NCBI GenBank assembly: GCA_016211085.1
Contig: JACQSY010000128.1
Span: 1,863-65,862 of the forward strand
DNA from: Acidobacteriota bacterium
GTDB taxonomy: Bacteria > Acidobacteriota > UBA6911 > RPQK01 > JACQSY01
Length of the DNA stretch: 64,000 nucleotides
Direction of reading: 5' to 3'
Below are positions 1 through 25,868 of the stretch, in pieces. A program made the position numbers and the translations under genes. Each line of letters begins with the position of its first letter. The stretch's first letter is position 1. The notes under the pieces were generated by a model. It made no database searches, was not told the DNA's origin, and was given only the letters and a program-made list of their open reading frames with translations.

Positions 1-350
1 ACCCGCTCGTCCTGCAGAGTAGGAGTCTCATGGGCTCCTCGAATCCTTATGCCCCTTCTTACTTCCACACCATTGAACAAAAGCCAGGATTTTACAGCCT
101 TCAGGACCGACGCGATGTAGCCGCCGGCGAAGTCTTTCTTTTCCATCGCCGTGACGGTGTCCAGCAGCAAGTTGTAAAGACTTCTCTCTTTCATTTTGGT
201 CAGTTGTGCGGGGGAGACGTTGTGGAATTGCAAGAAGCCGCCGAGCCTTCTCAGATACACGTCGGCCGTCGTTCGCGATCCTCTTGACACGTTCTCGTAC
301 CAGCGCCTGACGTTTTTGTCCTCCAGGAGATGGCCATACCGCGAAGGCAT
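1..350 (-). CDS. Tyrosine recombinase/integrase-like protein, N-terminal part (gene runs off the left window edge)
   Basis: My own minus-strand translation from the ATG at 350 gives MPSRYGHLLEDKNVRRWYENVSRGSRTTADVYLRRLGGFLQFHNVSPAQLTKMKERSLYNLLLDTVTAMEKKDFAGGYIASVLKAVKSWLLFNGVEV... It stays open for 116 codons to position 1. It is absent from the ORF track because no stop lies in the window. It looks like the N-terminal core-binding (SAM-like) domain of phage-integrase family proteins. The catalytic domain is not visible. Confidence 0.5.
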   Translation of the reverse strand, partial: MPSRYGHLLEDKNVRRWYENVSRGSRTTADVYLRRLGGFLQFHNVSPAQLTKMKERSLYNLLLDTVTAMEKKDFAGGYIASVLKAVKSWLLFNGVEVRRGIRIRGAHETPTLQDER

Positions 351-444
351 AGCTATATCTGAAAGCGAACTTTCTTAAAGGTTCCGAACCCATTTGGGTA
401 TGGGCCCGACGGGATTTGGGCGCAAACGGGTCTGGGTCTTGCCA

Positions 445-499: not shown

Positions 500-720
500 G
501 CATCCAGGAGAATGTTGGCGGCTGAGATGCCAGCGATGCAGATTCACTCCATCGTTTTCATGCATGTTGCCTGCAATCTTCAAATACTTTCGTCGTCTTC
601 AACCATCGTGACCGCACGAGGCCGGACAGTCGGCACGCAAATCGCTCGTTGCGTTGTAGTGGGCGGCAAAAGCGTCACCAGCAAAACACGCAACACACAC
701 ACCCCCCGTCTCTTCAAACG

Positions 721-754
721 AATAACCCGCAATCTTCCTGCGTTCCCCTTTAAT
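721..754 (+). promoter_or_regulatory. Island-specific box AATAACCCGCAAT, then N15, then TTTAAT, 24 nt upstream of the orc1/cdc6-like copy 1 ATG
   Basis: The box is at 721-733, TTTAAT at 749-754 and the ATG at 778. The same architecture recurs at 2165, 6556, 15416 and 25869 (see findings); the copy at 3527 has the box but no clean TTTAA element. Confidence 0.45.
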
Positions 755-777
755 TTCTGTCCACCGCTGTCTGTAGG

Positions 778-1806
778 ATGCAACCGGCTTTCAGGGATCC
801 GACAGCTTTCGCCGAAGCGTTCCTGCCACCACGCTTTGTCAACAGGGAGAATGAAATCTCTCGTCTTCGCTCATGCCTGATGCCGGTTGTGCAGCAAAGG
901 CCAGTGAAACACGTCTGGATTCATGGCCAGCCCGGAACAGGCAAGACCTCGGTCGCGAAGTTCCTGCTCAACGAACTCGAAGACAGGCACGGCATCCGTG
1001 GCGTCTATGTGAATTGTTGGGAAACCGAGACCTTTTACGGGGTACTCGACAAGTTGGTGCGCGATTTCCGCCTGCTCGGCGCAGAGCGCCTGAGCACGCT
1101 CTTCAAGATGGAACGGCTCGAGAAGCACCTGACAGGAAAACCGCTGCTCGTAGTCCTCGACGAAATTGACAAGCCCTCGCCAAAAGAAAGGGACCGGATC
1201 ATTTACAGTTTCTGCAGTATTCCAAACGTCGCCCTGGTCTGCGTGTGCAACAGCCGCTACTTTTTCTACACGCTCGACAGCCGCGTGAGGTCTCGGCTCA
1301 ATCCAATCCTCATGGAGTTTCGGCCTTACGCTTCTGAACAGATTATGGAAATCCTGCGGCAGCGCGCGGAACTCGGGTTTGGAGGTGAAGCGATCCAGGA
1401 GCTCGTCTTGAAAAAGATAGCGAACATTTCCGAGGGCGACGCAAGAATTGCGATTCAGACGTTGCGGCACGCGATGATCCAGACAGAACAGCACGGCGGC
1501 AAGATCCTGTCGGCGCATCTCAAGAGCGGTTACGCCGCTGCCCGAAACGCCAAGAAAAAATATCTCATCGCCCGTCTGACTGACCATCACAGACTAATCT
1601 ACCAGCTCATTCAGACAGAGACAGAAATTCAATCCGGGCCACTATGGAAGGAGTACCTCGAGCATTGCAATCGTCTGCGTTGGCAACCTGTTGCCTCACG
1701 AACGTTCACGCTGTATCTGAAACAGTTGGAGCAACTGGAGCTGGTCACGCACCGGCGAGCGCTGGGGATCAAAGGGAACGTGCGGATCTTTCAGATGAGG
1801 GAATAG
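778..1806 (+). CDS. Orc1/Cdc6-like AAA+ ATPase with C-terminal winged helix, copy 1
   Basis: Lead-in FLPPRFVNRENEISRL, Walker A GQPGTGKTS, Walker B LLVVLDEID, and a C-terminal RTFTLYLKQLEQLELV...GNVRIF winged-helix-like tail. 342 aa. Confidence 0.85.
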   Translation: MQPAFRDPTAFAEAFLPPRFVNRENEISRLRSCLMPVVQQRPVKHVWIHGQPGTGKTSVAKFLLNELEDRHGIRGVYVNCWETETFYGVLDKLVRDFRLLGAERLSTLFKMERLEKHLTGKPLLVVLDEIDKPSPKERDRIIYSFCSIPNVALVCVCNSRYFFYTLDSRVRSRLNPILMEFRPYASEQIMEILRQRAELGFGGEAIQELVLKKIANISEGDARIAIQTLRHAMIQTEQHGGKILSAHLKSGYAAARNAKKKYLIARLTDHHRLIYQLIQTETEIQSGPLWKEYLEHCNRLRWQPVASRTFTLYLKQLEQLELVTHRRALGIKGNVRIFQMRE

Positions 1807-1847
1807 CACTGCTGCAAGGCTCAGCCACTTGTGTGCGTCTTCACAAA

Positions 1848-1910
1848 AGGTGATGACGAACGACCAGGCTTTCCCGCCTGCTCGACGGAGTCCCCACTTG
1901 TGCCGACTTC
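1848..1910 (+). pseudogene. Remnant of a methyltransferase 5' leader and first ~16 codons
   Basis: AGGTGA, then 6 nt, then ACG ACC AGG CTT TCC CGC CTG CTC GAC GGA GTC ... TGT GCC GAC. This aligns with the leaders of the MTase genes at 3609 and 6756 (peptides TTRLSRLLDGVPTCAD vs TKDIFRLLGRVHCADA and TTGLSRLLGKVHCTDA). Similarity then ends and no SPPY motif follows. Confidence 0.35.
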
Positions 1911-2164
1911 TCGCACCGCTATGCCAAATCCGAGAACAGCTCTTTGATGAGGTTCCTCCTTTTACTCCTTCTGAAGGAGATACCAGTCAACGAAGTCAGC
2001 GGCGTTGAGTGACATCCAAAGAAAAATGCCTGCCTGAGATTCATTTTTCTTCGAGGTTGGTTGCATCTCATGCAGCCAATGTGGAATCTGCGCCAGGTAG
2101 GAAGGGCGACGATATTCGTTGCACGAGGAGCGTTCTTGTCCAAAAGTTGCCAGCGGCGGCTGTT

Positions 2165-2207
2165 CTTACCCGCAAGAAACGCAATGTGTGGTCGTTTGAT
2201 ATTTAAA
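2165..2207 (+). promoter_or_regulatory. Box CTTACCCGCAAG, then N25, then TTTAAA, 23 nt upstream of the orc1/cdc6-like copy 2 ATG
   Basis: The box is at 2165-2176, TTTAAA at 2202-2207 and the ATG at 2230. The 14-nt string TTCTTACCCGCAAG is identical to 25867-25880. Confidence 0.45.
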
Positions 2208-2229
2208 GTCATCGGCCCAACCCAAAAGC

Positions 2230-3258
2230 ATGAGAGCCGGAAGGATTCTTCTCAGCCCGGATGTTCTAGAGGAAAGCTATATTCCTCGCGAAATCCATGG
2301 AAGGCGAGCACAACTGGATCAGCTCCGAAATTGCTTGGCTCCGGCTCGGCGAAACATGCGGCCACTCCATACTCTCCTCGTCGGACCTCCGGGCACCGGA
2401 AAGACGGCTTTAGCCATCAGTGTGCTGAGAAGTGTCCGAAAAAACTCGATAGCCCGTGCACATGTGGACTGCTGGCGCCATGGCAGCCTGTACTCAGTGG
2501 TGGAGAAAATAGCGAAAGAGTTGCAGGTGATTGATGCTCAGCGAATCAGCACCGATTTCAAAATCCAACAGATCGCCAAGAGTCTGAAGGGACGCCCTTT
2601 GGTCGTAACGCTGGACGAGGTTGACAAGCTCCCACCGCGGGTGAGAAGGGATACCCTATACGGGCTGTTAACCATTCCAAGGACAGGCCTGGTTTGTATC
2701 GTGCAGGACGAGTATTTCTTCGAATCGCTTCCCCACGAACTCAAGTCCAGGCTCTGCCCGACGCGCATCGATTTCCAGCCTTACGAGTTGGACGACATGG
2801 TGAAAATTCTTACTGATCGATGCACGCAGGCACTCAGAAGGGGCAGCATCGAGGCTAGCTTGGTGAGAGAGATTGCTCTGCAGGCTGGTGGAAATGCGCG
2901 CCAAGGTCTTGAAATTATCAGGGCTGCCGCTTCTCTCGTCCAACACAGGGCTGCCGGCAAGGTTACCAGAGCCTACGCCAAGCTTTCGTTAGCGGGAGCA
3001 AACGACAGCAAGACGCACTACGTTCTCGACCAGAATCCCCATCTTCGCAAAATCTATGAGCTTGTGAAGAGCAATCCCGGAATCCTTTCGGGGCCACTGT
3101 GGTCGTTGTACAGAAAGCAGTGTCTAAAGAATAAAGAACAACCTGTAGCAGAGAGGACGTTCTCGCTGTATCTAAACCAGCTCGCCTCTCGGAAGCTGGT
3201 TGTCTCCGAGAAGGCTCTGGTCAGAGGAAACGTGAGGAGATATCGGACCTCGGAATAG
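2230..3258 (+). CDS. Orc1/Cdc6-like AAA+ ATPase with C-terminal winged helix, copy 2
   Basis: YIPREIHGRRAQLDQLRNCL lead-in, Walker A GPPGTGKTA, Walker B LVVTLDEVD, tail RTFSLYLNQLASRKLV...GNVRRY. It is a paralog of copies 1 and 3. Confidence 0.85.
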   Translation: MRAGRILLSPDVLEESYIPREIHGRRAQLDQLRNCLAPARRNMRPLHTLLVGPPGTGKTALAISVLRSVRKNSIARAHVDCWRHGSLYSVVEKIAKELQVIDAQRISTDFKIQQIAKSLKGRPLVVTLDEVDKLPPRVRRDTLYGLLTIPRTGLVCIVQDEYFFESLPHELKSRLCPTRIDFQPYELDDMVKILTDRCTQALRRGSIEASLVREIALQAGGNARQGLEIIRAAASLVQHRAAGKVTRAYAKLSLAGANDSKTHYVLDQNPHLRKIYELVKSNPGILSGPLWSLYRKQCLKNKEQPVAERTFSLYLNQLASRKLVVSEKALVRGNVRRYRTSE

Positions 3259-3526
3259 TGAATTCCCTCCAGAAGTTCTACTCCCCTGCCTGCTGGCGGC
3301 ACCGGTTGATCACAGACGGCGAAACCTCGGATTCGCGCGCAGCCTGGACGCTCTTCTGACCGGCGGCGGTCTCGGCCACCGCCTGTTGGAGCATGGATCA
3401 AGGCTGCTGGAAGAACTGGTTAAAGTGTTGCGTTTTTTGATGGCGCGCCGCTCGCTCGAAAGCAGCTTGCGCATCTTCGTAGCTTGGCCAACGACACCCG
3501 AGGCAAATCTATCCCTGCCTTAGCGG

Positions 3527-3539
3527 AATAACCCGCAAT
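3527..3539 (+). promoter_or_regulatory. Box AATAACCCGCAAT upstream of methyltransferase 1
   Basis: It is an exact 13-mer copy of 721-733 and lies 82 nt upstream of the AGGTGA ribosome-binding-like site at 3609. No clean TTTAA element follows. Confidence 0.35.
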
Positions 3540-3650
3540 GAAGACGCGTTAACAATTTCCTTCTTTCCGTTCGTAGGTGAAAGCAGCTTGAGTATCGAGG
3601 TCATCCTCAGGTGATGGAGCACGAAAGATATTTTCCGCCTGCTCGGCAGG

Positions 3651-5063
3651 GTGCATTGCGCGGATGCGGTCACATTCATAAGCAAGCTGCCGGACCGATG
3701 CATTGACTTCGTCATGACGTCGCCGCCTTATTGGGGGCTCAGGGATTACAGCGTCCAGCCACAGATTTGGGACGGCAATCCAAACTGCGAGCATGAGTGG
3801 TACGAACACCCGATGACCCTGATTCATGAAAATCGAAACAATCTTCGGGGCGCGCAAGAAGAGGTGGCAGGTAAGACAGGCACGGCGTTCATCAAGAAGC
3901 TCGACGACAAGACCGCAGCATGCTGTACCAACTGCCGCGCATGGCGAGGGGAGCTCGGGCTGGAGCCCTACTTCTTCATGTACATAGATCACCTCTGCCA
4001 GATTTTTGACGAAGTGAAGCGGGTGCGGAAGCCTGCTGGCACACTGTGGGTCAACCTCGGCGACACCTATAACTCTCACTCTGCTCGCAGTAAGGATGTA
4101 GGTGGATTTCAGGGGAGGCAGATGAGGAACAACAGAGACTATGCAAATGCGGTAGTCGTCCCCAAGAAGACCGGCGTTCCTGATAAATCCCTCTGCCAAA
4201 TCCCCAACCGCTTTGCAATCGAGATGACAAACCGAGGCTGGATTCTCCGAAACGAACTGATTTGGTGGAAGCCAAACTGCATGCCCAGCAGTGCAAGGGA
4301 CCGCTTCACCGTCGACTTCGAGAAGATTTTTTTCTTCGCCAAGGAGAAGAAGTACTTCTTCGAGACACAGTACGAGCCTTATAAAGACCCACAACAAATG
4401 GCGGCATATTATGCCGAAGACGCTATCAGTTCAGTGAAGCCTTTTCACCGACGAGAATCCCCGTTCCAAGTCACCTCTCGAACACAACCAAATCGATCTA
4501 CTGCTGATCGCGATAACTTCATCATCAACAAATCGTCCATCGATCCTGGTGGTCGCAACAAGCGCACCGTTTGGCGCATCCCGACCAAACCTTTCCCGGA
4601 GGCGCACTTCGCCGTCTACCCGCCAGAGCTGGTCGAGACGCCGATAAAGGCAGGCTGCCCCGAGTTCGTATGCAGGAAGTGCGGGAGGCCGCGCGAGAAG
4701 ATTCTCAACAACAATCAAGAGCGAGTTTATGACTACAAGCAAATCGGAATTCCTCGAGAAAGCGACCAGAGAGGCCGCAGAACCGATCCCTGTGGGATTG
4801 CTGACTATTCTTTTGTCGGCTACACCGGCTGCGACTGCAACGCCGGCCTCCGCGCCGGAATTGTCTTCGACCCTTTCGCGGGCGCAGGAACCACGTTGGT
4901 GGTCGCAAAGAAACTCGGCAGGCTCTATCTGGGCTGTGAGTTGAATCCTGCTTACGTCAGGATCGCAAGGCAGAGGCTTGCCAGAGTACCCTCAGACAAG
5001 GCTGCCGGCCCTCGCGCAGCATCACTCGCAAAATCATCGTGGGAGCAATCCACGACTTCTTAA
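3651..5063 (+). CDS. DNA methyltransferase, beta-class N4-C/N6-A family (motif IV before motif I), with internal Cys-x2-Cys insert; copy 1
   Basis: Motif IV is DFVMTSPPYWGLRDY near the N-terminus and motif I is VFDPFAGAGTT near the C-terminus. CRKCGRP lies upstream of motif I. The start is ambiguous: conserved codons extend upstream of the GTG at 3651, and an ACG at 3621 sits 6 nt after AGGTGA. Confidence 0.85.
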   Translation: MHCADAVTFISKLPDRCIDFVMTSPPYWGLRDYSVQPQIWDGNPNCEHEWYEHPMTLIHENRNNLRGAQEEVAGKTGTAFIKKLDDKTAACCTNCRAWRGELGLEPYFFMYIDHLCQIFDEVKRVRKPAGTLWVNLGDTYNSHSARSKDVGGFQGRQMRNNRDYANAVVVPKKTGVPDKSLCQIPNRFAIEMTNRGWILRNELIWWKPNCMPSSARDRFTVDFEKIFFFAKEKKYFFETQYEPYKDPQQMAAYYAEDAISSVKPFHRRESPFQVTSRTQPNRSTADRDNFIINKSSIDPGGRNKRTVWRIPTKPFPEAHFAVYPPELVETPIKAGCPEFVCRKCGRPREKILNNNQERVYDYKQIGIPRESDQRGRRTDPCGIADYSFVGYTGCDCNAGLRAGIVFDPFAGAGTTLVVAKKLGRLYLGCELNPAYVRIARQRLARVPSDKAAGPRAASLAKSSWEQSTTS

Positions 5064-5696: not shown

Positions 5697-6476
5697 CTAC
5701 ATGTCTCCAAGCCTGACCCAGTGATACCATCCTTCGAGGCTGAGTTCCCTGGCCCAGGCATCGACAATACACATGTCGCCGGCGTGACCTCTGTCGGGCT
5801 CCCTGAGGTATGAGTCCAGCTTTTCCCCTATCTCGGCAAATCCTTGCTCCACATAGGGAACGGTCAGATACGGCTCATCCAACAGCTTGCCAATCGCCTT
5901 CGCCAGAACGTAGTTCATGGTGTTTGATTTTGCGTAGATTGGCGGCGGTGTCCACTTCCTTATTTCAGACTCAAGGCATCGCAGCGATGTGGCATGCAGT
6001 GTGTGGAGTGCGGAAGCCTGAATCTCTCTCAGCCACTCGAAGTTCTCATAAACCCATGCATCGATTCTGCAATCTGCGGGGATGCTTGTCAGCTGCCGTA
6101 CGAGCCCGAAGCACAGCGACTCGAGAAACTGGTCCGACAAGTCTCTGGAAATCACAGGCCGCAGCTTCCAGTGTTCAGCGACCTGCCGTTTTGCTCTCGA
6201 GAGGCCTGCGGCATACGTGGCTGGCACAAGGCGATCCTCAGGCCTTGCGGTAAAGAATCGGTAGATGTGGCCGCATTCGTGGGCGATGAGGTAATCGAGG
6301 AACTTTTCGCAGGAGGGATTGTAGGAGACAAGGCAGTTTTTTTCACCTTGCCTTGGATAGCGAGTGGAACTCCAGACATCGAGGTTCGAGTCGCTGCTGA
6401 CCACAATGGTATATCCGCTCATCGAAGCGGCGGACTCCAGAATGCCCCGAGTGTGCGCACGCAAAGAGGACAACAC
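5697..6476 (-). CDS. Hypothetical protein with HExxH metallopeptidase-like motif
   Basis: 259 aa containing LIAHECGHIY. This is a single-motif call only. The gene is encoded antisense between the two MTase genes. Confidence 0.45.
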   Translation of the reverse strand: MLSSLRAHTRGILESAASMSGYTIVVSSDSNLDVWSSTRYPRQGEKNCLVSYNPSCEKFLDYLIAHECGHIYRFFTARPEDRLVPATYAAGLSRAKRQVAEHWKLRPVISRDLSDQFLESLCFGLVRQLTSIPADCRIDAWVYENFEWLREIQASALHTLHATSLRCLESEIRKWTPPPIYAKSNTMNYVLAKAIGKLLDEPYLTVPYVEQGFAEIGEKLDSYLREPDRGHAGDMCIVDAWARELSLEGWYHWVRLGDM

Positions 6477-6555
6477 GTCCTCTTCTGGCTCTGTTTCTTT
6501 AAATAGCTTGCTCAGGCATGCCCCAAGTCTTGCGGATATGCCGGTTCGTGAAACG

Positions 6556-6589
6556 AATAACCTGCAACAAGCCCGCAGGATTCTTTAAT
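6556..6589 (+). promoter_or_regulatory. Box AATAACCTGCAAC, then N15, then TTTAAT, upstream of methyltransferase 2
   Basis: The box is at 6556-6568 (one mismatch to 721-733; the shared flank is AAACGAATAACC) and TTTAAT is at 6584-6589. The 15-nt spacing is the same as at 721. Confidence 0.4.
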
Positions 6590-6797
6590 TCTTTTCCCTG
6601 GCTTATCGTTGGAAATGCCTTACCCAACAGCCAACGGAACGCTGCATCCGCTTTCAGAATTGCACCTGCCGTTAATATTCGTCGGACGGGAAGCCGAGAT
6701 TAAGGGAATGCGCAGGATGGAGTAGCGCCACGCGGTGCAGAGTCGGGCTCTGAATAGGTGATGAAAAACGACAGGACTGTCTCGTCTGCTTGGAAAG

Positions 6798-8441
6798 GTG
6801 CATTGCACAGATGCTCGAGAGTTTGTCGCTAGACTCCCCGATGAATCCATAGACTTCGTTATGACCTCTCCACCCTACTGGGGGCTGCGCGATTACGGCA
6901 CAAATCCGCAGATATGGGGCGGCGAGCCGGATTGCCAGCACCAATGGCACCACTTCATCAAACCCGCATCCAACGGCATAGTTGAAGGAGCAATAACAGG
7001 TCCGACACTGTCTCCGCATGCCGGAACGTGGCGGCCCCATATGTCTCAAATTTGTTCTCTTTGCAACGCTTGGCGCGGGGAGCTTGGACTGGAACCCGAC
7101 TTCTGCCTGTACATTGAGCATCTCTGTGCGGTTTTCGATGGGATAAAGCGTGTTGTGAAGTCGACCGCCAGTGTGTGGGTAAATCTCGGGGACACCTATT
7201 GGTCTGCAAAGGGATCCTGTTTCAACCCCGGCGGCGGCCAGCATTCTCTGGAAACATCAAGGCGTGAGGTGTACCCGCTGCATCGGGGCAACAAAACCGA
7301 CATCCCATGGCTTCGCCCAAAGTCCCTTTGTCAGATTCCGAATCGCTTTGCCATCGCTATGACTGATCGTGGTTGGATTTTGCGCAACGATATCATCTGG
7401 TGCAAACCAAACGGAATGCCCTCCAGCGTAAAAGACCGGCTGACCAATAAGTACGAGCACATCTTTCACTTTGTCAAATCAAGGCACTACTATTACGACC
7501 TCGATCCAATCCGCGTCCCGCACACGTCCCTTCACCCGCAGGGACACTCGTGGCGCACCTTGGAGGGAAGGACGATGCACACACAAAGGCATCTGCTGGG
7601 CCTGAGGAAAGCCGGCGCCGGCTACATCGGTCACGCATCGGGCAAGAACCCCGGCGATGTCATGCAGATTGGCGCTGATGTAGCTACAACTGCGCCGCGT
7701 TCTCGTGGCCTTTGCGCAATGGAGTTCCATGGCGAGCCCGACGATTCGCTCGATTTCTGGAAGCGTGAGGTGCTTGAGAGCTTCCGATGCATAGGGAAGG
7801 CGACAGGGAGAAGATTCCGGGGCAAACACAACCAACTCTCCAAGAATTCCTTCAGGACGGCTCTAAACAGCGGCCAAGCAAGAACCGCCGTAAACGCGAT
7901 CATTGATGGTTTGGACATTCCGGCGGGAGTGAAGCGAGAACTCAAGAGATGGTGGCATGACCACAGCGGTCACGTTCAGGGAACCAACCCCGGCGACCTG
8001 TGGAAGGTCGCGACCAGGCCATTTCCCGAGGCGCACTTTGCCGTCTATCCAGAGACGCTATGCGAGCTGCCAATCAAAGCAACCTGCCCGCCGGCGGTCT
8101 GCTCAGAATGTGGCAAACCAAGACAGCGGATCATTGAAAAATCTGGGTACTCAGGGCGAAGCAGAAAAGACAATGGCCATCGCCGTCACGTACCCGGATT
8201 CAAGGAGCGGGAGAACCGATCACAATGGGGCGAGAAACCCGTTCATGTAACAACAGGCTGGACATCCTGCCACTGCAATGCTGGCTTTCGGCCGGGTGTT
8301 GTCTTTGACCCGTTTGCAGGGGCAGGCACCACGTTGGTTGTCGCAAAGAAACTCGGCCGGCTCTATCTGGGCTGCGATTTGAAACCCGCTTACGTGAAGC
8401 TTGCCAACCGACGGTTGAGAGAAACACCATGCCGGGCATGA
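6798..8441 (+). CDS. DNA methyltransferase, beta-class N4-C/N6-A family, copy 2 (longer central region)
   Basis: DFVMTSPPYWGLRDY, PFPEAHFAVYP, CSECGKP and VFDPFAGAGTT. The 3' ~100 nt are about 85 percent identical to copy 1. The start is ambiguous (ACG at 6768, 6 nt after AGGTGA). Confidence 0.85.
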   Translation: MHCTDAREFVARLPDESIDFVMTSPPYWGLRDYGTNPQIWGGEPDCQHQWHHFIKPASNGIVEGAITGPTLSPHAGTWRPHMSQICSLCNAWRGELGLEPDFCLYIEHLCAVFDGIKRVVKSTASVWVNLGDTYWSAKGSCFNPGGGQHSLETSRREVYPLHRGNKTDIPWLRPKSLCQIPNRFAIAMTDRGWILRNDIIWCKPNGMPSSVKDRLTNKYEHIFHFVKSRHYYYDLDPIRVPHTSLHPQGHSWRTLEGRTMHTQRHLLGLRKAGAGYIGHASGKNPGDVMQIGADVATTAPRSRGLCAMEFHGEPDDSLDFWKREVLESFRCIGKATGRRFRGKHNQLSKNSFRTALNSGQARTAVNAIIDGLDIPAGVKRELKRWWHDHSGHVQGTNPGDLWKVATRPFPEAHFAVYPETLCELPIKATCPPAVCSECGKPRQRIIEKSGYSGRSRKDNGHRRHVPGFKERENRSQWGEKPVHVTTGWTSCHCNAGFRPGVVFDPFAGAGTTLVVAKKLGRLYLGCDLKPAYVKLANRRLRETPCRA

Positions 8442-8507: not shown

Positions 8508-9095
8508 ATCAGGCCACGCCAACTTTCCTACATGGCTTCGCACTCAACCGAGTTCGGCGACTGGTATTTTCTTGAACAGGAGTTCGAGCAGATGTACTAT
8601 CGGAATCAAGCAGCTTTCGCCATGGTGGCGGGAGTCAACTAAAACAGTCTCCAGGAAACCCGGGGCGGTTCAATGCTCGAATGGGAAACGAAGGAGAGCG
8701 AAACACTTCTCAACGTTGGAAAACTAGCCAAGCCGTTCAGCTACGAGCTGCGGATTGCCGAAGGGCAGGAGACAAAGAAGAGAGTGGTCGAGATCCCGGA
8801 AACATTTAACTACCTGCTTGGCCTGCATGTCAAAACCCGTCGCGTTTATTACGACAAAGACAGAAGGTATGTTGTCTATCGTGGGCGTCTCGACCACCAA
8901 GAAGTCGTGATCATCTGGCGGGATACTGACGGGTGGACGAAACAGGATCTGGAGCGGGATAAGAAATTCATCTCCGATCAGGGACTTACGCAAGACGCCG
9001 AGGAAATATTTGTTAATGGCGACAGCTTCATTCCCAAGGCCAAGGCGTTGGAACCGATTTTCAAGAGCAGGATGTTCTCCACAGTGGAGGTTTAG
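8508..9095 (+). pseudogene. C-terminal fragment of a type III-like Mod methyltransferase (in-frame TAA at 8640; intact 140-codon ORF 8673-9095)
   Basis: MLEWETKESETLLNVGKLAKPFSYELRI...VVEIPETFNYLLGLHV...VVIIWRD matches, from memory, the conserved C-terminal region of large Mod-type methylases that precede Res helicases. No catalytic motifs lie upstream. The same frame is open from 8508 but is interrupted by a stop. Confidence 0.45.
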
Positions 9096-9098
9096 CAG

Positions 9099-12000
9099 AT
9101 GGCACAGGCGCGCTCAAGGACAGGAGAGTATCGGAAGTTAGAGCAACGGCTTGTTCTGCTGGCTTGGCTCAATAGTCTCTTCGGTTATGAGAGCAATCGA
9201 GACCTTTTAACAGATATGAAGGATGTCGCAGAGGGCTTCGACTCGTCCGGGCGGAGCTACATCTTCCACCAGATTGAAGCCCTGGGAGACAGAGTACGGA
9301 TTCCCCTGCAGGACCTGGCAAGGTACGACGACAATATCCGGGAGCATCTGCAAATGCTGAACGCCCGCCGGCCAGAGCCCATAACTCTCCGTTATTTCCA
9401 GTACCTGGCTGTGCTCTACTCGGAGATATTTCTGGACTGGTACTTCCAGCGACGGGCCGGGATGCTTCGGGCCCTGAACGAATTCGTGGAGAAGCGAAAC
9501 GCCGGGAAGTCGGCTAGCGAGCCGAAAGACCCGAAGTTCTCTGAACAAGAGCTAATGAAACTTGCGTTCTGGATGGCAACAGGCAGTGGCAAGACGCTCA
9601 TCATGCACATCAATTACCGTCAGTTCTTGCACTACAACGACAGGCCCTTGGACAACATCCTCTTAATTACACCAAATGAGGGCCTCACCGAGCAGCACAT
9701 GGCTGAGATGACAGATTCCAGCATTCCTTGTCAGCGTTTCGAGCTGAACGAAAGTGGTTTGGGTCTCCGCGAGGAAAATACAGTCCGCCTGATCGAAATC
9801 ACGAAGCTGGTCGAGGAGAAACGCGGCGGGGGCTTGAGCGTTCCGGTGGAAGCGTTTGAAGGCAACAACCTGATCTTCGTCGACGAAGGGCACAAGGGCT
9901 CTGGCGGGGAGGTATGGCGAAAGTTTCGCGACGCACTGGGCAGGACCGGCTTTACTTTCGAGTACAGCGCGACTTTCGGTCAGGCCCTTACCGCGGCCAG
10001 AAGGGATGAGCTTACCGCCGAGTATGGGAAGGCCATCGCTTTTGACTACTCTTACCGGTACTTCCATGGAGACGGCTACGGGAAGGATTTTCACATTCTC
10101 AATCTGAAGGAGGAGACGATAGAGGAAAAGATCGAAACGCTTCTTCTCGGAAATCTCCTGTCTTTCTATCAACAACAGCGGTGCTTTCAAGAACAGTCAG
10201 ACGATCTGAGGCCGTACCACCTGGAAAAGCCCCTATGGGTTTTCGTAGGGAGCAGCGTGAATGCCGTATACACTGAAAAGAAGCGTAAACGATCCGATGT
10301 CTTAACTGTGGCGCGTTTCCTTCACCACTTTCTTGAGAATAGGCGCGGCTGGGCTGTCAAGACTATCCAAAAGCTCATTGATGGTAAGAGCGGCCTCACC
10401 ACTCCCGACGGCGAGGACATCTTCACAGGGAAATTCGGCTACTTACAGGCAACGAAGCTGAACACTGAAAGTATCTACCGTGAGGTTCTTTCGGAAGTAT
10501 TCCATGCCGCTGCTAGCAGCGCCCTGCACATGTGCGACATACGCGGCTGCCCAGGCGAACTGGGTTTGAAGGCCAGCGGCACAGACAGTTACTTCGGACT
10601 AATCTATATCGGTGACACCAGCAGCTTTAAGAAGCTCGTGGAACAGGATGACTCCGGCATCGTCTTGGAAGACGACGCCATTTCGGATTCCTTGTTTGAG
10701 GAAATAAATAACCCGGACAGCCGTATACAACTCCTTGTCGGTGCCAAGAAGTTCATGGAGGGTTGGAACAGCTGGCGGGTCTCAAATATGGGACTTCTGA
10801 ACATCGGAAGAAAGGAAGGCTCCGAGATTATTCAGCTCTTCGGTCGGGGAGTAAGGCTGCGGGGCATGGACTTTACACTCAAGCGCAGCTCTGCAATTGA
10901 TGCGAAGCACCCCGAGCACATCCGTCTGTTGGAGACATTGAACATCTTTGCCGTTCGAGCGAATTACATGAGCCAGTTCCGGGAGTACCTGGAAAAGGAA
11001 GGTGTCGAAACAGAAGGAGCCGTCGAGCTGGCTTTAGCGATAAAGCCGAATCGGGACTTCTTGGATGGGGGCCTAATCGTGCCGAGGGTGCCGGAGGAGG
11101 AGAGCTTTGCAGCAAAGGCGCACGTCTTGTTGGAGCCAGAGCAAGAAGTAAATGTTCGCGTGGACATATCTCTTAAGATTCAGGCACTGGAAAGCGGTAC
11201 AGAGGGGATTACGGCTGTGGCTGCACGAGGCGGGCGTGAGAGGCCGATACCTCCCGAAAGCCTTCAGCTTGTCGACTGGGAAAAGATCTACCTCGATCTC
11301 TTGGAGTATAAAGAGCAAAAAGGCTTTTTTAACTTGGCTATCCGGCCGGATATTCCAAAGAAGGTTCTCTCTGCAACCGAGCCAGCTAGGCTGTATCAGC
11401 TTGTGGCGGATGAAGCCGTAACCAGGCCAACTTCCTTTGCGCAAGCCTCGCTGCTCCAAGAAGCCGTGCTTTCCATAATGCGCAAGTACGTGGACAAATT
11501 CTACCGGGTGCGCCAGGAGCGATGGGAATCCGAACATATGGACTATAAAGTCCTCGAAGACGGCGACCCGAACCTGCAAGACTATTCGGTCAAGATAGCA
11601 CGCTCAGAGGCCGCGCTTATAGGGGCAGTTCAGAAACTCATTAAGGAAGGTGCGCGGATATACAAGGAAGAGACGCGTGATCTACCCAGCATTCACTTCG
11701 ACCGTCATCTGTACCAGCCTTTGCTTGTCGAACGCGGTGACAGAGTTAAGAGCAAACCCCGCGGTCTTAACTCCGGCGAACAGCAGTTTGTCAAGGACAT
11801 GCGAGAATACTTCCGAGCCGAGAAAGACAAGTCGCTAGCCAAGAAGGAGGTATTTCTTCTTCGGAACCTAAGTCGTGGGAGAGGTATTGGTTTCTTTCAG
11901 ACAAGAGGCTTCTACCCCGATTTTATCTTGTGGATCAAGGACGCCAAGAAACAACGGATCGTTTTCGTGGAACCACACGGCATGCTGCATGCTGAGGCTT

Positions 12001-12290
12001 ACAAGCATGACGAGAAGGCAAAGCTGCACGAATCCTTGCCAAAGCTCGCCAAGGAAGTGGGCGCAAGAACCGGTCTGAAGAGTGTGATCCTTGACTCGTT
12101 CATTGTTTCGGCCACGCCTTTCGAGGCTCTTCGGAAGAAGTATGATGACGGAACGTGGGATAAGAAACGGTTCGCCGAGGCGCATATCCTCTTTCCCGAA
12201 CGGAACGGAGAATATGATTACATGGCGAGAGTATTCGAGGACGGCCGAAGCAAGATAGCGGATTACAGTGAAAGACAGGCGTTAACCTGA
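9099..12290 (+). CDS. Type III restriction Res-like SF2 helicase with C-terminal PD-(D/E)xK-like nuclease region
   Basis: Motif I is WMATGSGKT, motif II is IFVDEGHKG, motif III is YSATF and motif VI-like is IQLFGRGVRLRG. The C-terminus reads GFYPDFILW...IVFVEPHG. The N-terminus reads ...LRYFQYLAVLYSEIFLDWYF. 1063 aa. Confidence 0.8.
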   Translation: MAQARSRTGEYRKLEQRLVLLAWLNSLFGYESNRDLLTDMKDVAEGFDSSGRSYIFHQIEALGDRVRIPLQDLARYDDNIREHLQMLNARRPEPITLRYFQYLAVLYSEIFLDWYFQRRAGMLRALNEFVEKRNAGKSASEPKDPKFSEQELMKLAFWMATGSGKTLIMHINYRQFLHYNDRPLDNILLITPNEGLTEQHMAEMTDSSIPCQRFELNESGLGLREENTVRLIEITKLVEEKRGGGLSVPVEAFEGNNLIFVDEGHKGSGGEVWRKFRDALGRTGFTFEYSATFGQALTAARRDELTAEYGKAIAFDYSYRYFHGDGYGKDFHILNLKEETIEEKIETLLLGNLLSFYQQQRCFQEQSDDLRPYHLEKPLWVFVGSSVNAVYTEKKRKRSDVLTVARFLHHFLENRRGWAVKTIQKLIDGKSGLTTPDGEDIFTGKFGYLQATKLNTESIYREVLSEVFHAAASSALHMCDIRGCPGELGLKASGTDSYFGLIYIGDTSSFKKLVEQDDSGIVLEDDAISDSLFEEINNPDSRIQLLVGAKKFMEGWNSWRVSNMGLLNIGRKEGSEIIQLFGRGVRLRGMDFTLKRSSAIDAKHPEHIRLLETLNIFAVRANYMSQFREYLEKEGVETEGAVELALAIKPNRDFLDGGLIVPRVPEEESFAAKAHVLLEPEQEVNVRVDISLKIQALESGTEGITAVAARGGRERPIPPESLQLVDWEKIYLDLLEYKEQKGFFNLAIRPDIPKKVLSATEPARLYQLVADEAVTRPTSFAQASLLQEAVLSIMRKYVDKFYRVRQERWESEHMDYKVLEDGDPNLQDYSVKIARSEAALIGAVQKLIKEGARIYKEETRDLPSIHFDRHLYQPLLVERGDRVKSKPRGLNSGEQQFVKDMREYFRAEKDKSLAKKEVFLLRNLSRGRGIGFFQTRGFYPDFILWIKDAKKQRIVFVEPHGMLHAEAYKHDEKAKLHESLPKLAKEVGARTGLKSVILDSFIVSATPFEALRKKYDDGTWDKKRFAEAHILFPERNGEYDYMARVFEDGRSKIADYSERQALT

Positions 12291-12301: not shown

Positions 12302-15300
12302 ATGAACGTGCAGCAGAAAAGCGTAATTGAGCGGTTACGGGAGGAGATTGAAAGATCGAAGGGGTCTCACATCTGGACAGATTACGTCAACGCCTTGAAT
12401 CTAGTAGCTCAGGTTGTCTTTACTAGAAGCACAGGTTTTATTCTGGAACTGATTCAAAATGCCGAGGATTCCGGTCGGGACGATTCCGGTAAGGAGCTAT
12501 CTTATCCAGGAGTGTTTGACATCAGCATTAGCCCGACTAGGGTGAAAATTACCCACAATGGGCGTCCCTTCAGCGCAGCTGACGCTAAAGCCATCAGCGG
12601 AATTAGGTCCTCAAAGAAACCCGAAAAAGGGACGCTGGGCTATCTTGGTATTGGGTTCAAATCAATATTCAAGGTTAGCGACAGCCCGGAGGTTTACTCT
12701 AATGGTTACCAATTCAAATTCGACCGGAATTACTGGCCAGAATCCAGCGGTACACCGTGGCAAGCGATGCCAATTTGGATTGATGAGCCGTCTGAAGCGG
12801 TCGAACCAGGCGGCACAACCTTCATCATCCCTTTTACAAAACAAACTTCTGCGTCGGCTGTCCTCGAGGAAGTAAAAGAACTGGGAACGGAGCTGTATCT
12901 ATTTCTCCGATGGCTTAAGAAGATCCAAATAACTGACGAACTTTCAGGCAAAACTTGGTCCCTGGAGAACCTAGGAGAGAGTTCGGATAATATCGTCACA
13001 CTCCGGCGCGATGGTCAGCAACAGAGATTTAGATTCTTTCGCCGAACCCTAACGACCGTGCCGGATTCAGTGAAATCAGATCGATTGACCCAGGAGTACA
13101 GGCGGAACGTGACTCAGAGAGAAATCGCAATCGCCTTCGCCTTAGACGGGGAGGGCGACCTAGCCCCATCAGAGGCTGGCGCAATGTATGGCGGAGTCTA
13201 TTCGTTCTTACCACTAGGCGAAGCAAGGAGCGGGGCAAAGTTTCCGATTCAGGCCGATTTTCTCGTGCAGCCAGGACGCGATGCCATCAATTATGAGGCT
13301 CCATGGAATCACTGGCTGACCGAGGAGGTAGCCAGCCTTTGCAAGGAAGCCATACAAGCTTTCAAGGAGCATCAAAGATGGAAGTATCAGATTTTGCCTG
13401 TTTTTGAGTTCAGGAAGTCAATCGGACTGGAGTCTTACGATAGGCTTTTTGGACCAAAACTCATCGAGCCTCTAGAGAGCTTCTTAAAAGAAGATCCCTG
13501 CATACCAACCCACGACGGTCATTGGGTGAAACCTGGCCATGCGGTGCGATTGGTGGAAGATCAGCGAGCGAGTGACGACCTTGTAACACTGTGCATTCTC
13601 TCGAAAGATCAAATTGCGCAAGTTCTCGGCCGTGATTCAAATTTGAAACTGGCGCACCCAGCCGTTCAAGACAGCAAATCAATAACAATCAGAGAAGTAA
13701 AGCGACACGATTTGTTGACGAACGAAAGTTTCTTGGAGGAAATGAGCAAAGCGCCGGACGCGCCCGGCTGGTTTAGGTCAGTTTATCTTTGGCTTCAGAA
13801 GCATCCTATTTATCGCGAGTATAGACGGCGAAAAGAAGTCATTGGCTATCACGAATTCCCATTCATCCTAACGGCCAAGAAAGAACTTTTGAAGGGCGGC
13901 ACAGTGTGGATTCCCGACCTTCCACCTGCCGATCCAATACTAAATGAATTAGCCGGGTCGCTCCAGGAAACTCGCTCGGTGCTACACCCAGAGATTCTGG
14001 GAGGCGGGAATGAACAGGAACAAAGAGAACTTCGAGGTTTTCTGACGGGGTTAACGGGAGTTCAACTTTTAGATCGAAAAACAGTTTGCAGAGACGCAAT
14101 ACTGCCGAGGATTTTGACTACCGCTCCAAAGCCAGCGCGAGAGCTGCTCCTGAAGTACACTCGATATTGCCAGCAGATTCTTGGAGCCGAACTAGGCTTG
14201 GAACCAGAACTTTGGGTTCTCACGAAATCAGGAGAAGTAGAACCCGCTACACGCGTTCTATTCTCTTTCGAGTATAAGCCCGAGCAAGATTGGGAAACCA
14301 ACAAGAAGTACGTTCCAGGTCTGAGTTTTCTAAGTCCAGAATACCTTTCGACTCTAAATGATGATGCACACCTGAAAACCTGGCGTCAATTTTTTAAGGT
14401 AGGTGGCCTGAAAACCGCTCCCGATAACGGCGTCGAGGACTTTGCCATGAACTATGCGGTCGAATGTTTGAGATCACACTGCCGCTCGGTTACTAGATTA
14501 GAGAAGAGAAATTTTGGCTATGACTTGGAAGCAGAAAAGACCGATGGCCAAAAAATGTATATCGAAGTCAAAGGACAAACTCTGGACCATGATGTCGAGC
14601 TTACAGGTAATGAGACTGAGGCAGCGGATAAATACAAAGATGAATTCTATGTATTCGTGATCTCCTCGATACCCGAAAATCCTTCGCCGTATATAATTCG
14701 CAATCCCGCCGCTCCGGGGGTAGGTAAAAAGGACAAGCTCACAATTCCGACTGAGACCTGGAAGTCAGGCAGGTGGAAGTTGGATACACGATCGCGGGCG
14801 AAGATCGGGATCTTGGCTTATGGCTCCTTGATCGATTCTCCTGGGCCGGAAATCTCCCGTGTTACAGTAAATAGAATAAAAGTCGAAACGCCTTTTAATG
14901 TCGAGTTTGCTCGTTCTAGTCAGACACGCAGTGGCGCACCTACGTTAGTCCCCGTCTCGGAAGGCGGTGCAAGGGTGAACGCGTTGATCCTGGTCTTAGA
15001 CGATAAGGTGTCCGAACAAGACGCCATAAACATGTTGTGGCGTAGGGAGAGCAGTAACGTTGGCAGTTCGCTCTCCTACCGCCCACAGATAGAGCCTACG
15101 GAGAATTCGATTATTATTGAAAACCTGAAGGACTTTAATGGAATCGAGACGGTGTTGTACACGAGGATTAGTGCGAACATCAATCCAAGAACGCCGGCGC
15201 AACTCGCGCAGCTAGCAATCCGGAGTGCACAGTCCGAGGCGGGAGCAAACGGGAAGGATGGTATAACCTATTTGCTGGCCGCGAAGGGGGCCGGAATTCT

Positions 15301-15397
15301 TACGCCCTTGATGACGGAGTATGAGGCACAAATTCTGAGCCGGACGGGGGCCCAAACGCTTGAGCAAGCATTAGAGAAGATTCGGCAAAGTACCTAA
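12302..15397 (+). CDS. GHKL-type ATPase / DUF3883-like nuclease / ChaC-GGCT-like C-terminal domain fusion protein
   Basis: The Bergerat N-box is ELIQNAEDS (about 12446) and the G-box is GYLGIGFKSIF. GYDLEAE...MYIEVKG...FYVFVI (14426-14707) resembles the DUF3883 restriction-endonuclease fold. IGILAYGSLIDSPGPE...MLWRRE (14801-) resembles ChaC/gamma-glutamylcyclotransferase. Confidence 0.7.
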   Translation: MNVQQKSVIERLREEIERSKGSHIWTDYVNALNLVAQVVFTRSTGFILELIQNAEDSGRDDSGKELSYPGVFDISISPTRVKITHNGRPFSAADAKAISGIRSSKKPEKGTLGYLGIGFKSIFKVSDSPEVYSNGYQFKFDRNYWPESSGTPWQAMPIWIDEPSEAVEPGGTTFIIPFTKQTSASAVLEEVKELGTELYLFLRWLKKIQITDELSGKTWSLENLGESSDNIVTLRRDGQQQRFRFFRRTLTTVPDSVKSDRLTQEYRRNVTQREIAIAFALDGEGDLAPSEAGAMYGGVYSFLPLGEARSGAKFPIQADFLVQPGRDAINYEAPWNHWLTEEVASLCKEAIQAFKEHQRWKYQILPVFEFRKSIGLESYDRLFGPKLIEPLESFLKEDPCIPTHDGHWVKPGHAVRLVEDQRASDDLVTLCILSKDQIAQVLGRDSNLKLAHPAVQDSKSITIREVKRHDLLTNESFLEEMSKAPDAPGWFRSVYLWLQKHPIYREYRRRKEVIGYHEFPFILTAKKELLKGGTVWIPDLPPADPILNELAGSLQETRSVLHPEILGGGNEQEQRELRGFLTGLTGVQLLDRKTVCRDAILPRILTTAPKPARELLLKYTRYCQQILGAELGLEPELWVLTKSGEVEPATRVLFSFEYKPEQDWETNKKYVPGLSFLSPEYLSTLNDDAHLKTWRQFFKVGGLKTAPDNGVEDFAMNYAVECLRSHCRSVTRLEKRNFGYDLEAEKTDGQKMYIEVKGQTLDHDVELTGNETEAADKYKDEFYVFVISSIPENPSPYIIRNPAAPGVGKKDKLTIPTETWKSGRWKLDTRSRAKIGILAYGSLIDSPGPEISRVTVNRIKVETPFNVEFARSSQTRSGAPTLVPVSEGGARVNALILVLDDKVSEQDAINMLWRRESSNVGSSLSYRPQIEPTENSIIIENLKDFNGIETVLYTRISANINPRTPAQLAQLAIRSAQSEAGANGKDGITYLLAAKGAGILTPLMTEYEAQILSRTGAQTLEQALEKIRQST

Positions 15398-18009: not shown

Positions 18010-18230
18010 TATGCATGCGAACCCTGAAAGAGTACCGAGTCGTCTGGGAAATTGAGCTATACGCCTGCAGCCCAAGGGAAGCAGCGCAAAGGGCGCTGGA
18101 GACACAACGCGACCCTGATTCCACGGCAACCGGCTTTGATGTTTACCGCCTCGACGCAGGCACCGGAGTGCAATCGGCCACGGGCGAGCCCGTGCACGTT
18201 GACCTTGGGAGGTATCATCCGCTGGAGTGA
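18006..18230 (+). CDS. Small protein, family A copy 1
   Basis: MRTLKEYRVVWEIELYACSPREAAQRALE... It is near-identical at the nucleotide level to 19086- for about 120 nt. Confidence 0.6.
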   Translation: MICMRTLKEYRVVWEIELYACSPREAAQRALETQRDPDSTATGFDVYRLDAGTGVQSATGEPVHVDLGRYHPLE

Positions 18231-18484
18231 CGATCATGACCGACGACGCCAAGACATATCCGACATGCCCGGAGTGCGGGAGCGGGGAGTTCATCATTCA
18301 CGGGCTGGTCGCGTACCGCCAGGTATATATCGCCCCGCTTGATGAGTATGGCAAGAGCGCGGTTGACTGGGACACGTTTTATCCATCCGCAGCCCGCTGC
18401 CGATTGTGCGACTCCGACGCCACCGAGCTGTTCCGCCGGTATGATCACGTGCCGTTCTTGGTCAGCGTTCCGCCGCTGGAGTGA
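18227..18484 (+). CDS. Small zinc-ribbon protein, family B copy 1
   Basis: CPECGSGEF...DWD...CRLCDS. Paralogs lie at 19357 and 27543. Confidence 0.6.
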   Translation: MTIMTDDAKTYPTCPECGSGEFIIHGLVAYRQVYIAPLDEYGKSAVDWDTFYPSAARCRLCDSDATELFRRYDHVPFLVSVPPLE

Positions 18485-18518
18485 TCTGGGTGCCGACTCT
18501 GAAATTCGTGGGTGATCA

Positions 18519-19331: not shown

Positions 19332-19356
19332 TGACGACACAGGCCGGAGGCGATTC

Positions 19357-25839: not shown

Positions 25840-25868
25840 GGAGAGGCGCGGGCGAGCCTTGCGTAATT

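Follow-up and report, generated by a model that had tools for sequence, protein, structure and literature searches.

A short Orc1/Cdc6-family ATPase in a conserved cassette with a DNA methyltransferase and an HExxH protein on bacterial defence islands

Archaea and eukaryotes have Orc1/Cdc6 as their signature replication initiator; in bacteria, genuine copies of it are, to our knowledge, unusual. What, then, are three genes with the look of this family doing on one stretch of bacterial DNA, and why are two of them accompanied by DNA methyltransferase sequences? The stretch, hereafter called the window, comprises 64,000 nucleotides of the Acidobacteriota assembly GCA_016211085.1 (contig JACQSY010000128.1, positions 1,863 to 65,862). 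An earlier note, made from its letters alone, had described the three genes as diverged Orc1/Cdc6-type ATPase genes on an integrated element and had offered two functions for them, replication initiator of an excised form of the island or NTPase partner of the methyltransferases. The bacterial host that it had read from the flanking genes is borne out by def, fmt, rsmB, aroC and an MlaD-like gene on the right side of the window. We found that the three proteins belong to the Orc1/Cdc6 family and that in related loci such a gene forms part of a recurrent three-gene cassette with a methyltransferase and an HExxH protein.

The open reading frame (ORF) list confirmed the three genes, all on the plus strand, at 778-1806 (copy 1, 342 aa), 2230-3258 (copy 2, 342 aa) and 25934-26968 (copy 3); counted from its ATG at 25934 the third encodes 344 aa and not the 345 given earlier, and an alternative GTG at 25907 would make it 353 aa. 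The NCBIfam model TIGR02928 (orc1/cdc6) matched all of them end to end, with E values of 2.9e-53, 1.9e-44 and 8.2e-56 for copies 1, 2 and 3. Judged by the curated cut-off of this model, 181.3 bits, the whole-protein score of copy 3 was above it (189.4), that of copy 1 fell 0.3 bits short (181.0) and that of copy 2 was below (152.1). Pfam AAA_16, AAA_22 and Cdc6_lid exceeded their cut-offs in all three copies, the Cdc6-type lid (PF22703) scoring 36.9, 30.2 and 47.3 bits in copies 1, 2 and 3 versus a cut-off of 27, and the Cdc6_C winged helix (PF09079) stayed under its cut-off of 25.1 with 21.0, 19.8 and 16.9 bits. The best PDB match of the family profile was S. solfataricus Orc1-1 (2qby_A, E 3.9e-56), aligned through the winged-helix region to its residue 348, and the next matches were other archaeal Orc1/Cdc6 proteins followed by eukaryotic Cdc6 and Orc1. 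An AlphaFold model of copy 1 (pLDDT 90.2) likewise matched archaeal Orc1, with TM 0.82 to 2qby_A and 0.81 to 2v1u_A, both of them DNA-bound Orc1 structures, over about 350 columns. Between strands 2 and 3 of this model (74-79 and 123-128) lie two helices, 86-97 and 107-117, which would correspond to the initiator-specific motif; the lid is present, and residues 269-340 form a winged helix in a helix-strand-helix-helix-hairpin layout. The profile searches and the fold comparison that the earlier note had proposed thus bore out the complete Orc1/Cdc6 layout it had described, the end-to-end TIGR02928 match, the Cdc6 lid and the modelled winged helix being in agreement. The other possibility it had named, a different AAA+ clade with no Cdc6-type winged helix, did not materialise: no copy matched the IstB, TniB or DnaC helper ATPases (IS21, Tn7) at E <= 0.01, no transposase gene is adjacent, and the sole trace of TniB is a 'faint' precomputed entry for one related locus (L024 in our numbering, which is used below to tell loci apart). 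By sequence and by fold, the three genes encode genuine members of the Orc1/Cdc6 family.

All the motifs listed in the earlier note were found, namely the N-terminal lead-in (FLPPRFVNR, YIPREIHGR and FVPETIHGR in copies 1, 2 and 3), Walker A, Walker B and the RTFxLYL...GNVR tail. Walker A, Walker B, the arginine finger and sensor 2 are intact in copy 1 and all present in copy 2. Neither the SR arginine nor sensor 2 (GDAR, GNAR or GNIR) varies, and across the family alignment Walker A, Walker B and the arginines of SR and sensor 2 are nearly invariant. In copy 3, Walker B (residues ~127-132) reads VLNEID, with Asn in place of an Asp that is nearly invariant in the family. The position which we take as sensor 1 is Asn in most members, Gln in copy 2 and Glu in copy 3, and the relatives of these two copies likewise carry Gln or Glu. 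The subclade of copies 2 and 3 may bind ATP without hydrolysing it. Relationships were judged from best-hit identities. The copies share 34-46% identity among themselves, copies 2 and 3 being 34-38% identical to copy 1 (copy 2 34%) and copy 2 45% identical to copy 3. Closer relatives lie elsewhere: copy 1 is 55-57% identical to the proteins of L029 and L030, with a similar level to that of L031 (P0272) in the profile search, and copy 3 is 60% identical to the L024 protein (P0002), to which copy 2 is 44% identical. A recent, local tandem duplication is contradicted by these values. Copy 2 falls in a separate subclade from copy 1, the three copies are best described as ancient paralogues, and copy 1 is the predicted orthologue of the cassette ATPases in L029-L032 introduced below. 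An antisense ORF at 871-1590, apparently 'conserved' in L029 and L024, was discarded, as it only mirrors the conserved sense frame.

How large is the family to which these proteins belong? In an exhaustive profile search more than 150 clusters at 50% identity were recovered with E better than 1e-61, and nearly all their full-length members have 340-350 aa; at ~345 aa, the proteins form a distinct 'short Orc1/Cdc6' family. Going by the names that sources attach, its members come from Planctomycetota, Latescibacterota and Binatia, among other bacteria, and from Helarchaeota and Aenigmarchaeota, among other archaea, and occur in metagenome-assembled genomes (MAGs) of both domains; indeed all relatives of the window proteins derive from metagenomes. 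Scanned with the three window copies, genome contigs gave in the main unrelated AAA+ proteins of ~740 aa sharing only the Walker A pattern, the only full-length relative being at a Thaumarchaeota locus (L006); a scan of metagenome contigs matched just two short contigs. No carriers of the family were found among the IMG/VR viral contigs, and the plasmid and phage collections yielded only haloarchaeal Orc1 at <30% identity and no copies on bacterial plasmids or viruses. Compared with archaeal Orc1/Cdc6 (S. solfataricus Orc1-1, 2qby; A. pernix Orc1, 2v1u), the window proteins have the same AAA+ core with what the model presents as an initiator-specific helical insert, lid and winged helix; sensor 2 is likewise of the GDAR type, and the Y/F-hydrophobic-P...R lead-in stands at the N-terminus in both. 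They differ in being shorter (~345 versus ~390-420 aa), in being bacterial with several diverged copies per island, in the methyltransferase operon around the cassette ATPase, which has no AT-rich origin next to it, and in the Gln or Glu that copies 2 and 3 carry at the presumed sensor 1.

The association with methyltransferases is not peculiar to the window. At four related loci, L029, L030 (Binatia MAG GCA_050735075.1), L031 and L032 (Acidobacteriia MAG GCA_027717655.1), the Cdc6-like gene is the middle member of one and the same three-gene cassette, in which an HExxH gene on the minus strand is divergent from it and a PF01555 methyltransferase gene follows it on its own strand; the flanking genes differ between these loci. 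The earlier note had named lack of conservation of the Cdc6-like/methyltransferase adjacency as grounds for giving up the pairing, and the adjacency is kept in L029, L030, L031, L032 and L001. We examined 13 Cdc6-like genes in their genomic context. For seven of them a PF01555 methyltransferase, or in the case of copy 1 what is left of one, is encoded on the same strand no more than 2 kb downstream. This linkage spans two subclades, and two of the linked genes, window copy 2 and the second L001 copy, lie outside the subclade of copy 1. The cassette proteins are ~50-60% identical between loci, yet gene order, methyltransferase leader and promoter blocks are kept, which argues for long-term selection.

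The HExxH gene has its counterpart in the window at 5697-6476 (minus strand, 259 aa, HECGH at residues 66-70). Its product is 50-62% identical, over the full length, to that of the gene divergent from the Cdc6-like gene in L029-L032 and is the putative orthologue of the cassette's third gene product (~258 aa). The protein family is uncharacterised, and 24 of 28 homologues retain the HExxH motif. Searches of Pfam, NCBIfam, PHROG, PADLOC and PDB sequences gave no match to this protein. Its AlphaFold model (pLDDT 95.7) places HECGH on a helix (54-75) which follows strands 23-28, 36-39 and 47-52, and a three-stranded sheet followed by the HExxH helix weakly suggests a zincin-like layout. Foldseek with this model found nothing in PDB and gave weak matches in BFVD (E 3e-3 to 4e-2, TMq 0.35-0.47) to phage VWA-domain proteins of ~600-700 aa and a 'Peptidase', with SprT-like and IrrE-like proteins at E 0.2 or weaker. 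A distant HExxH homologue (28% identical) stands in a defence-type operon with MazG-like and SLFN-helicase genes and no Cdc6-like gene.

Compared with these loci, the window can be read as three cassettes in different states of decay. Cassette A consists of copy 1 and a ~60-nt methyltransferase stump, and cassette B of copy 2 with methyltransferase 1, 350 nt downstream. In cassette C (5697-8441) the HExxH gene and methyltransferase 2 are present and the Cdc6-like gene is lost, its promoter block being kept at 6541-6600; tblastn detected no Cdc6-like remnant in 6477-6755. The duplicated two-gene module of the earlier note thus simplifies too far: the unit has three genes instead of two, and the cassettes have diverged and decayed independently. 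Between cassettes B and C an 83-aa ORF at 5333-5584 matches only the C-terminal part of PIN (positions 70-116 of 120, E 5e-5) and is probably a truncated VapC-type toxin gene.

Methyltransferase 1 (3609-5063, plus strand, leader included; annotated from a GTG at 3651) and methyltransferase 2 (6756-8441, plus strand; 547 aa from a GTG at 6798, plus leader) are beta-class PF01555 enzymes, with E values of 1.1e-35 (3651-5063) and 1.7e-34 (6798-8441), and PADLOC places them under MTase_II. The first carries motif IV as SPPY, motif I as FDPFAGAGTT and Cys-rich inserts, matches PADLOC MTase_II (E 1.7e-73) and is 45% identical to the L001 methyltransferase, itself encoded downstream of a Cdc6-like gene. 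The second is 40-42% identical, over ~480-550 aa, to the methyltransferases of L029 and L032, of which it is the likely orthologue. The two window enzymes are 47% identical at the N-terminus and ~50-52% at the C-terminus and differ in the centre, which under the usual beta-class layout would give them different target specificities. PDB relatives of the window methyltransferases include both N6-adenine and N4-cytosine enzymes, and the SPPY motif, as we take it, merely leans towards N4-cytosine in the beta class.

The beginning of the methyltransferase genes is itself conserved. The remnant after copy 1 (1848-1910, plus strand), which the earlier note had already recognised as ~60 nt of a methyltransferase gene, consists of the conserved AGGTGATG leader and ~15 codons, the remaining gene being deleted. 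Its positions 1848-1891 align with the leaders at 3609 and 6756 (the three members, at 1848, 3609 and 6756, of repeat family D4) and it also aligns with the leaders of L029, L031 and L032; its translation reads RLLDGVPTCADF against RLLGKVHCTDA in both full genes. A GGTGATG leader is common to the cassette methyltransferases (window 1848-1900, 3609-3660 and 6756-6810; L029 8076-8130; L031 and L032), with its ATG out of frame with the enzyme and its TGA forming an in-frame stop. The in-frame leader peptide that follows, x-T-x-x-I-S-R-L-L-G-K-V-H-C, is conserved with synonymous changes and contains no ATG, GTG or TTG start, so gene callers truncate the methyltransferase N-terminus; translation may begin at a near-cognate codon, either the strictly conserved ACG or ATT, ATC or CTG. 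Accordingly the gene placed at 3651-5063 in the earlier note is indeed a methyltransferase gene, but its true start is probably upstream of the GTG at 3651. In L029, L031 and L032 GGTGATG begins 7-20 nt past the Cdc6 stop codon, which argues for a single transcript, that is, a Cdc6-like/methyltransferase operon, and GGTGATG would be the ribosome-binding site of the methyltransferase. The cassette methyltransferase is called in two pieces in L030 (13051-14410, 399 + 85 aa) and in L031 (11178-12564, 118 + 345 aa), and assembly error, real decay or frameshifting could each account for the split.

Conservation extends into the intergenic regions. Upstream of copy 1 a block at 706-777 (plus strand) contains GAATAACC (720-727), CCGCAA (727-732), a 17-nt spacer and TTAATT (750-755). 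It can be aligned with window positions 6541-6600 (repeat D9) and, in L029-L032, with the region between the HExxH and the Cdc6-like gene, GAATAA and TTAAT being invariant, and is likely a promoter or operator of the Cdc6-methyltransferase operon. The same alignment places a Cdc6 promoter block in the intergenic region 6477-6755 (plus strand), from which the expected Cdc6-like gene is gone. A generic sigma-70 scan did not call the 706-777 block, and the generic sigma-70 and terminator scan as a whole performed no better than on shuffled sequence. One possible reading of the conserved intergenic blocks is a pair of divergent promoters, [CT]TGCA[AT]-N17-TTAAT, with short tandem repeats. Between the recombinase-like gene at the left edge of the window and copy 1, three direct TTTTGCG repeats occur at 443-477 with spacings of 12 and 9 nt, and the intergenic regions of L029-L031 contain a tandem repeat, yTTGCrrGT, twice, both repeats of which change together in L031 relative to L030; both kinds of repeat are possible protein-binding sites. 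We found no AT-rich unwinding element and no ORB-like dyads beside any copy, only short promoter-like repeats, and the intergenic regions have 45-53% GC compared with 54% for the loci.

Furthermore, the surroundings of the Cdc6-like genes are alike in kind: every examined locus is an integrase-linked defence island. In the window, a C-terminal fragment of a type III Mod (8673-9095, 140 aa; PADLOC MTase_III positions 904-1026 of 1057, E 1.7e-15) is directly followed by a type III Res-like helicase-nuclease (9099-12290; PADLOC REase_III, E 3e-156), and the Mod gene seems to be truncated where the cassette array ends. A Tiamat-like TmtA follows at 12302-15397 (1031 aa; sacsin-type HATPase N-terminus and NOV_C; PADLOC E 1.2e-98). 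The related loci carry genes of type I and type III restriction-modification (R-M), CBASS, Thoeris-like TIR, SIR2, SbcCD-like and SLFN/AlbA_2 types; in L029 a Mod-Res pair is found close to the cassette but separate from it, and the conserved cassette has no nuclease inside it. Four loci further carry, within 8 kb of the Cdc6-like gene, a DUF87/HerA-like ATPase (~670 aa, with faint similarity to the TraG P-loop) and a partner of ~175 aa without a known domain (L001 6026-8576, L003 6736-9269, L029 15164-17733, L032 1006-3578), and L006 has a weak DUF87/HerA-like fragment; the window has no such gene. This pair could be the element's DNA translocase or a separate defence pair. One integrase family is common to L001, L003, L031 and the Thaumarchaeota MAG locus L006, where it lies 4 kb from the short Cdc6-like gene, and small Zn-ribbon and domainless genes in the window (15.7-19.6 kb and 27.0-27.8 kb) are shared with L030, L001 and L032. 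The shared integrase, the DUF87 pair and the small genes indicate that the Cdc6-like gene belongs to a mobile island backbone which crosses the divide between bacteria and archaea. At the left edge of the window, the gene that the earlier note had called a tyrosine integrase is represented by its 5' part (1-355, minus strand, ~116 codons, running off the window) and is divergent from copy 1; the assignment is weakly supported, the only match being to the N-terminus of NCBIfam archaeal XerA (profile positions 9-85, E 0.0029), with none in Pfam and no similarity to the integrases of L001, L003, L030 and L031.

Other features of the window are noted for completeness. Three paralogous small-gene pairs, each a Zn-ribbon gene (~75-127 aa) and a gene for a protein without a known domain (98-149 aa), occur at 18227-18815, 19264-19979 and 27027-27770, the last directly after copy 3, and have homologues in L030 and L032; this suggests that several related elements have accreted in tandem. 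Copy 3 starts 94 nt after a RadC-like JAB gene and has no methyltransferase adjoining; the region around it (24350-29576) also encodes an AlkB-like 2OG-Fe(II) oxygenase, a phage-type PAPS reductase and a protein that resembles staphylococcal nuclease and has a signal or anchor region. Mobile elements typically carry such a gene set in their anti-restriction or leading regions. The PAPS-reductase-like gene (27882-28628), 0.9 kb past copy 3, matches PHROG 424 (E 2.5e-51) and SspD (E 5.7e-13). Well outside the island, among housekeeping genes, a 631-aa product encoded at 42670-44565 weakly resembles XisF, a large serine recombinase (E 1e-10).

What do the Cdc6-like proteins do on these islands? 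Of the two functions offered in the earlier note, that of an NTPase partner fits better, with the operon, the third partner and the defence islands on its side, and that of a replication initiator gained no positive support. The tight methyltransferase operon, the diverged methyltransferase centres, the conserved accessory gene and the defence-island setting lead us to prefer a DNA-modification defence module. Starting from the observed family assignment, cassette conservation, operon coupling and island context, we tentatively propose, as the most plausible of the readings considered here, that the Cdc6-like protein does not initiate replication here but serves the methyltransferase as an ATP-dependent partner in DNA binding or loading, and that the zincin-like protein is its regulator or effector. 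In such a module the ATPase would bind or encircle duplex DNA through the initiator-specific motif and the winged helix; it might then guide methylation of host DNA in an ATPase-dependent manner or, were it able to discriminate methylation states, occupy unmethylated incoming DNA and block its replication, and the zincin-like protein, possibly as a protease, would act as regulator or effector. The whole would amount to an epigenetic self/non-self module, modelled by analogy on BrxC-PglX of BREX and on SspC of Ssp. ORC/Cdc6-clade ATPases are indeed known as partners of DNA-modifying enzymes, BrxC with PglX in BREX and SspC with SspD in Ssp (PMC12839542, PMC10853773, PMC12707154).

The cassette is nevertheless distinct from each of these systems. 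BREX (PMC12839542) shares with it the defence-island context and the lack of a nuclease, and BREX type 1 has BrxL, which carries a protease domain; in contrast, BrxC is a DUF499-type protein of ~1200 aa with extra domains and PglX belongs to another methyltransferase class, where the cassette has a 342-aa ATPase and a beta-class PF01555 enzyme, and PglZ, BrxA and BrxB are not among the genes annotated at the cassette loci. We rejected membership in BREX, as no PADLOC BREX model matched among the ten proteins scanned, ATPases and methyltransferases included. In SspABCD (PMC10853773, PMC12707154) the ORC/Cdc6-clade ATPase SspC similarly pairs with a DNA-modifying enzyme, the PAPS reductase SspD, but no match to SspC, SspA or SspB was found, the SspD-like match of 27882-28628 is weak and far better explained as PHROG 424, and the proximity of copy 3 to this PAPS reductase was seen once and is absent from its closest relative, L024. 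Membership in SspABCD was likewise rejected, copy 3 having no PADLOC SspC match. The HerA/FtsK + Orc/Cdc6 capture systems (PMC10853773) also feature an Orc/Cdc6-family ATPase in mobile defence neighbourhoods, and a DUF87/HerA-like ATPase occurs at four of our related loci; however, in these systems an inserted, inactive REase domain separates the AAA+ core from the winged helix, and an active nuclease is present as well. The copy 1 model has no such insert, its lid being directly followed by the winged helix, and with no DUF87/HerA gene in the window this membership was rejected too.

Several observations weigh against a methylation-linked defence role. Six of the 13 Cdc6-like genes, copy 3 among them, have no adjacent PF01555 methyltransferase, so the family as a whole is not tied to methylation. 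No recognisable nuclease or other effector was found in the cassette, a zincin-like fold is weakly supported (E of 3e-3 or higher in BFVD, no match in PDB), and PADLOC has no model for the ATPase or the HExxH protein. The split methyltransferases of L030 and L031 imply that the cassette may often be non-functional. The proteins are far closer to true archaeal initiators than to BrxC or SspC, and origin binding is the default that homology suggests. Moreover, the Thaumarchaeota locus combines its short Cdc6-like gene with a DUF87/HerA-like pair and an integrase of related type, and such thaumarchaeal genes have been read as replication modules (PMC6563490).

We next consider the strongest of the alternatives, itself unlikely, namely that the Cdc6-like protein is a transcriptional master regulator of the island, which binds the divergent promoter region through its winged helix and controls the methyltransferase and the cargo, the zincin-like protein acting as an anti-repressor protease in the manner of ImmR/ImmA, DdrO/IrrE or CapH/CapP. 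The conserved HExxH/Cdc6 intergenic region, the co-variation of the yTTGCrrGT tandem repeats between L030 and L031 and the divergent arrangement of a putative protease with a putative DNA binder would all suit such a regulator, as would the very different cargo that Cdc6-like genes adjoin and the other metalloprotease-type neighbours, the RadC-like JAB before copy 3 and an M48 peptidase gene beside L024. An archaeal Orc1/Cdc6 paralogue, Orc1-2, is described as a DNA-damage-response regulator (PMC6061795). On the other hand, regulators of the ImmR or CapH type are not typically coupled to a methyltransferase in the style of co-translation, and an entire AAA+ ATPase whose catalytic motifs are conserved exceeds the needs of a repressor. 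IrrE-type proteases are weak fold matches (E above 1), and no cleavage site or helix-turn-helix repressor could be identified.

More doubtful still is that the Cdc6-like protein initiates replication of an excised integrative element by binding an origin in the adjoining intergenic region and recruiting a helicase, with the methyltransferase shielding the element against restriction by new hosts. Origin-bound initiators are the nearest solved structures to these true orthologues of Orc1/Cdc6, and the one integrase family near short Cdc6-like genes (L001, L003, L031 and L006) together with the recurrent DUF87/HerA-like ATPase looks like a shared mobile backbone. The archaeal and thaumarchaeal integrated elements (Krupovic et al. 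2019, PMC6563490) similarly combine an integrase and Orc1/Cdc6 with R-M and other cargo and with small RHH and Zn-ribbon genes, but their hosts are archaea, where ours are bacteria, and the methyltransferase + HExxH cassette is not described there. The Cdc6/Orc1 of the thaumarchaeal elements has been interpreted as a replication initiator, a role which for archaeal integrated elements is only presumed (PMC6563490). Besides the Cdc6-like genes we noticed no replication gene in the island, and an excised form would need one; the short direct repeats upstream of copy 1 (TTTTGCG x3 at ~445-477) might also be counted in favour. Against all this, the host is a bacterium, and we know of no bacterium that has MCM, the helicase which Orc1/Cdc6 loads. 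The missing AT-rich unwinding element and ORB-like dyads, the lack of a helicase, primase or polymerase among the genes of the island, the presence of three diverged copies on one island with two of them in tandem, and the Asn in Walker B of copy 3 speak against an initiator as well, and the conserved upstream blocks are readable as two divergent promoters. No circular contig, bacterial plasmid or viral contig with the family was found, and none of the six short related contigs covered end to end showed the terminal overlap of a circle. The specific version in which an archaeal-type Orc1/Cdc6 starts replication of the excised element in bacteria through a DnaB-type helicase instead of MCM, with the methyltransferase protecting an element family that moves between archaea and bacteria, is one that we consider quite improbable.

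Least probable of all is that the Cdc6-like genes are decaying, non-functional or unrelated passengers from archaeal elements, adjacent to methyltransferases by shared descent of one mobile segment, since the visible decay in the window (methyltransferase remnant, lost Cdc6 gene, truncated type III Mod, PIN fragment), the split methyltransferases of L030 and L031 and the archaeal MAG names in the family list are outweighed by the constant length of ~345 aa in more than 150 clusters at 50% identity, by a family alignment in which Walker A/B and the arginines of SR and sensor 2 hardly vary, and by gene order, leader and promoter blocks kept at ~50-60% protein identity.

A literature search of incomplete coverage retrieved no description of a cassette made of a short Orc1/Cdc6 protein, a PF01555 methyltransferase and an HExxH protein. 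One branch of a sizeable short Orc1/Cdc6 family is now placed in a tight, conserved cassette with a methyltransferase and a putative zincin-like protein. Should an initiator role prove right after all, an archaeal-type initiator would for the first time be seen to work with a bacterial replisome. If, as we tentatively prefer, the ATPase directs or reads methylation, the cassette would be a counterpart to BREX and Ssp in minimal, tractable form, the part played by the ORC/Cdc6-clade ATPase in those systems being not yet clear, and an origin-recognition protein would have been re-used for self/non-self discrimination.

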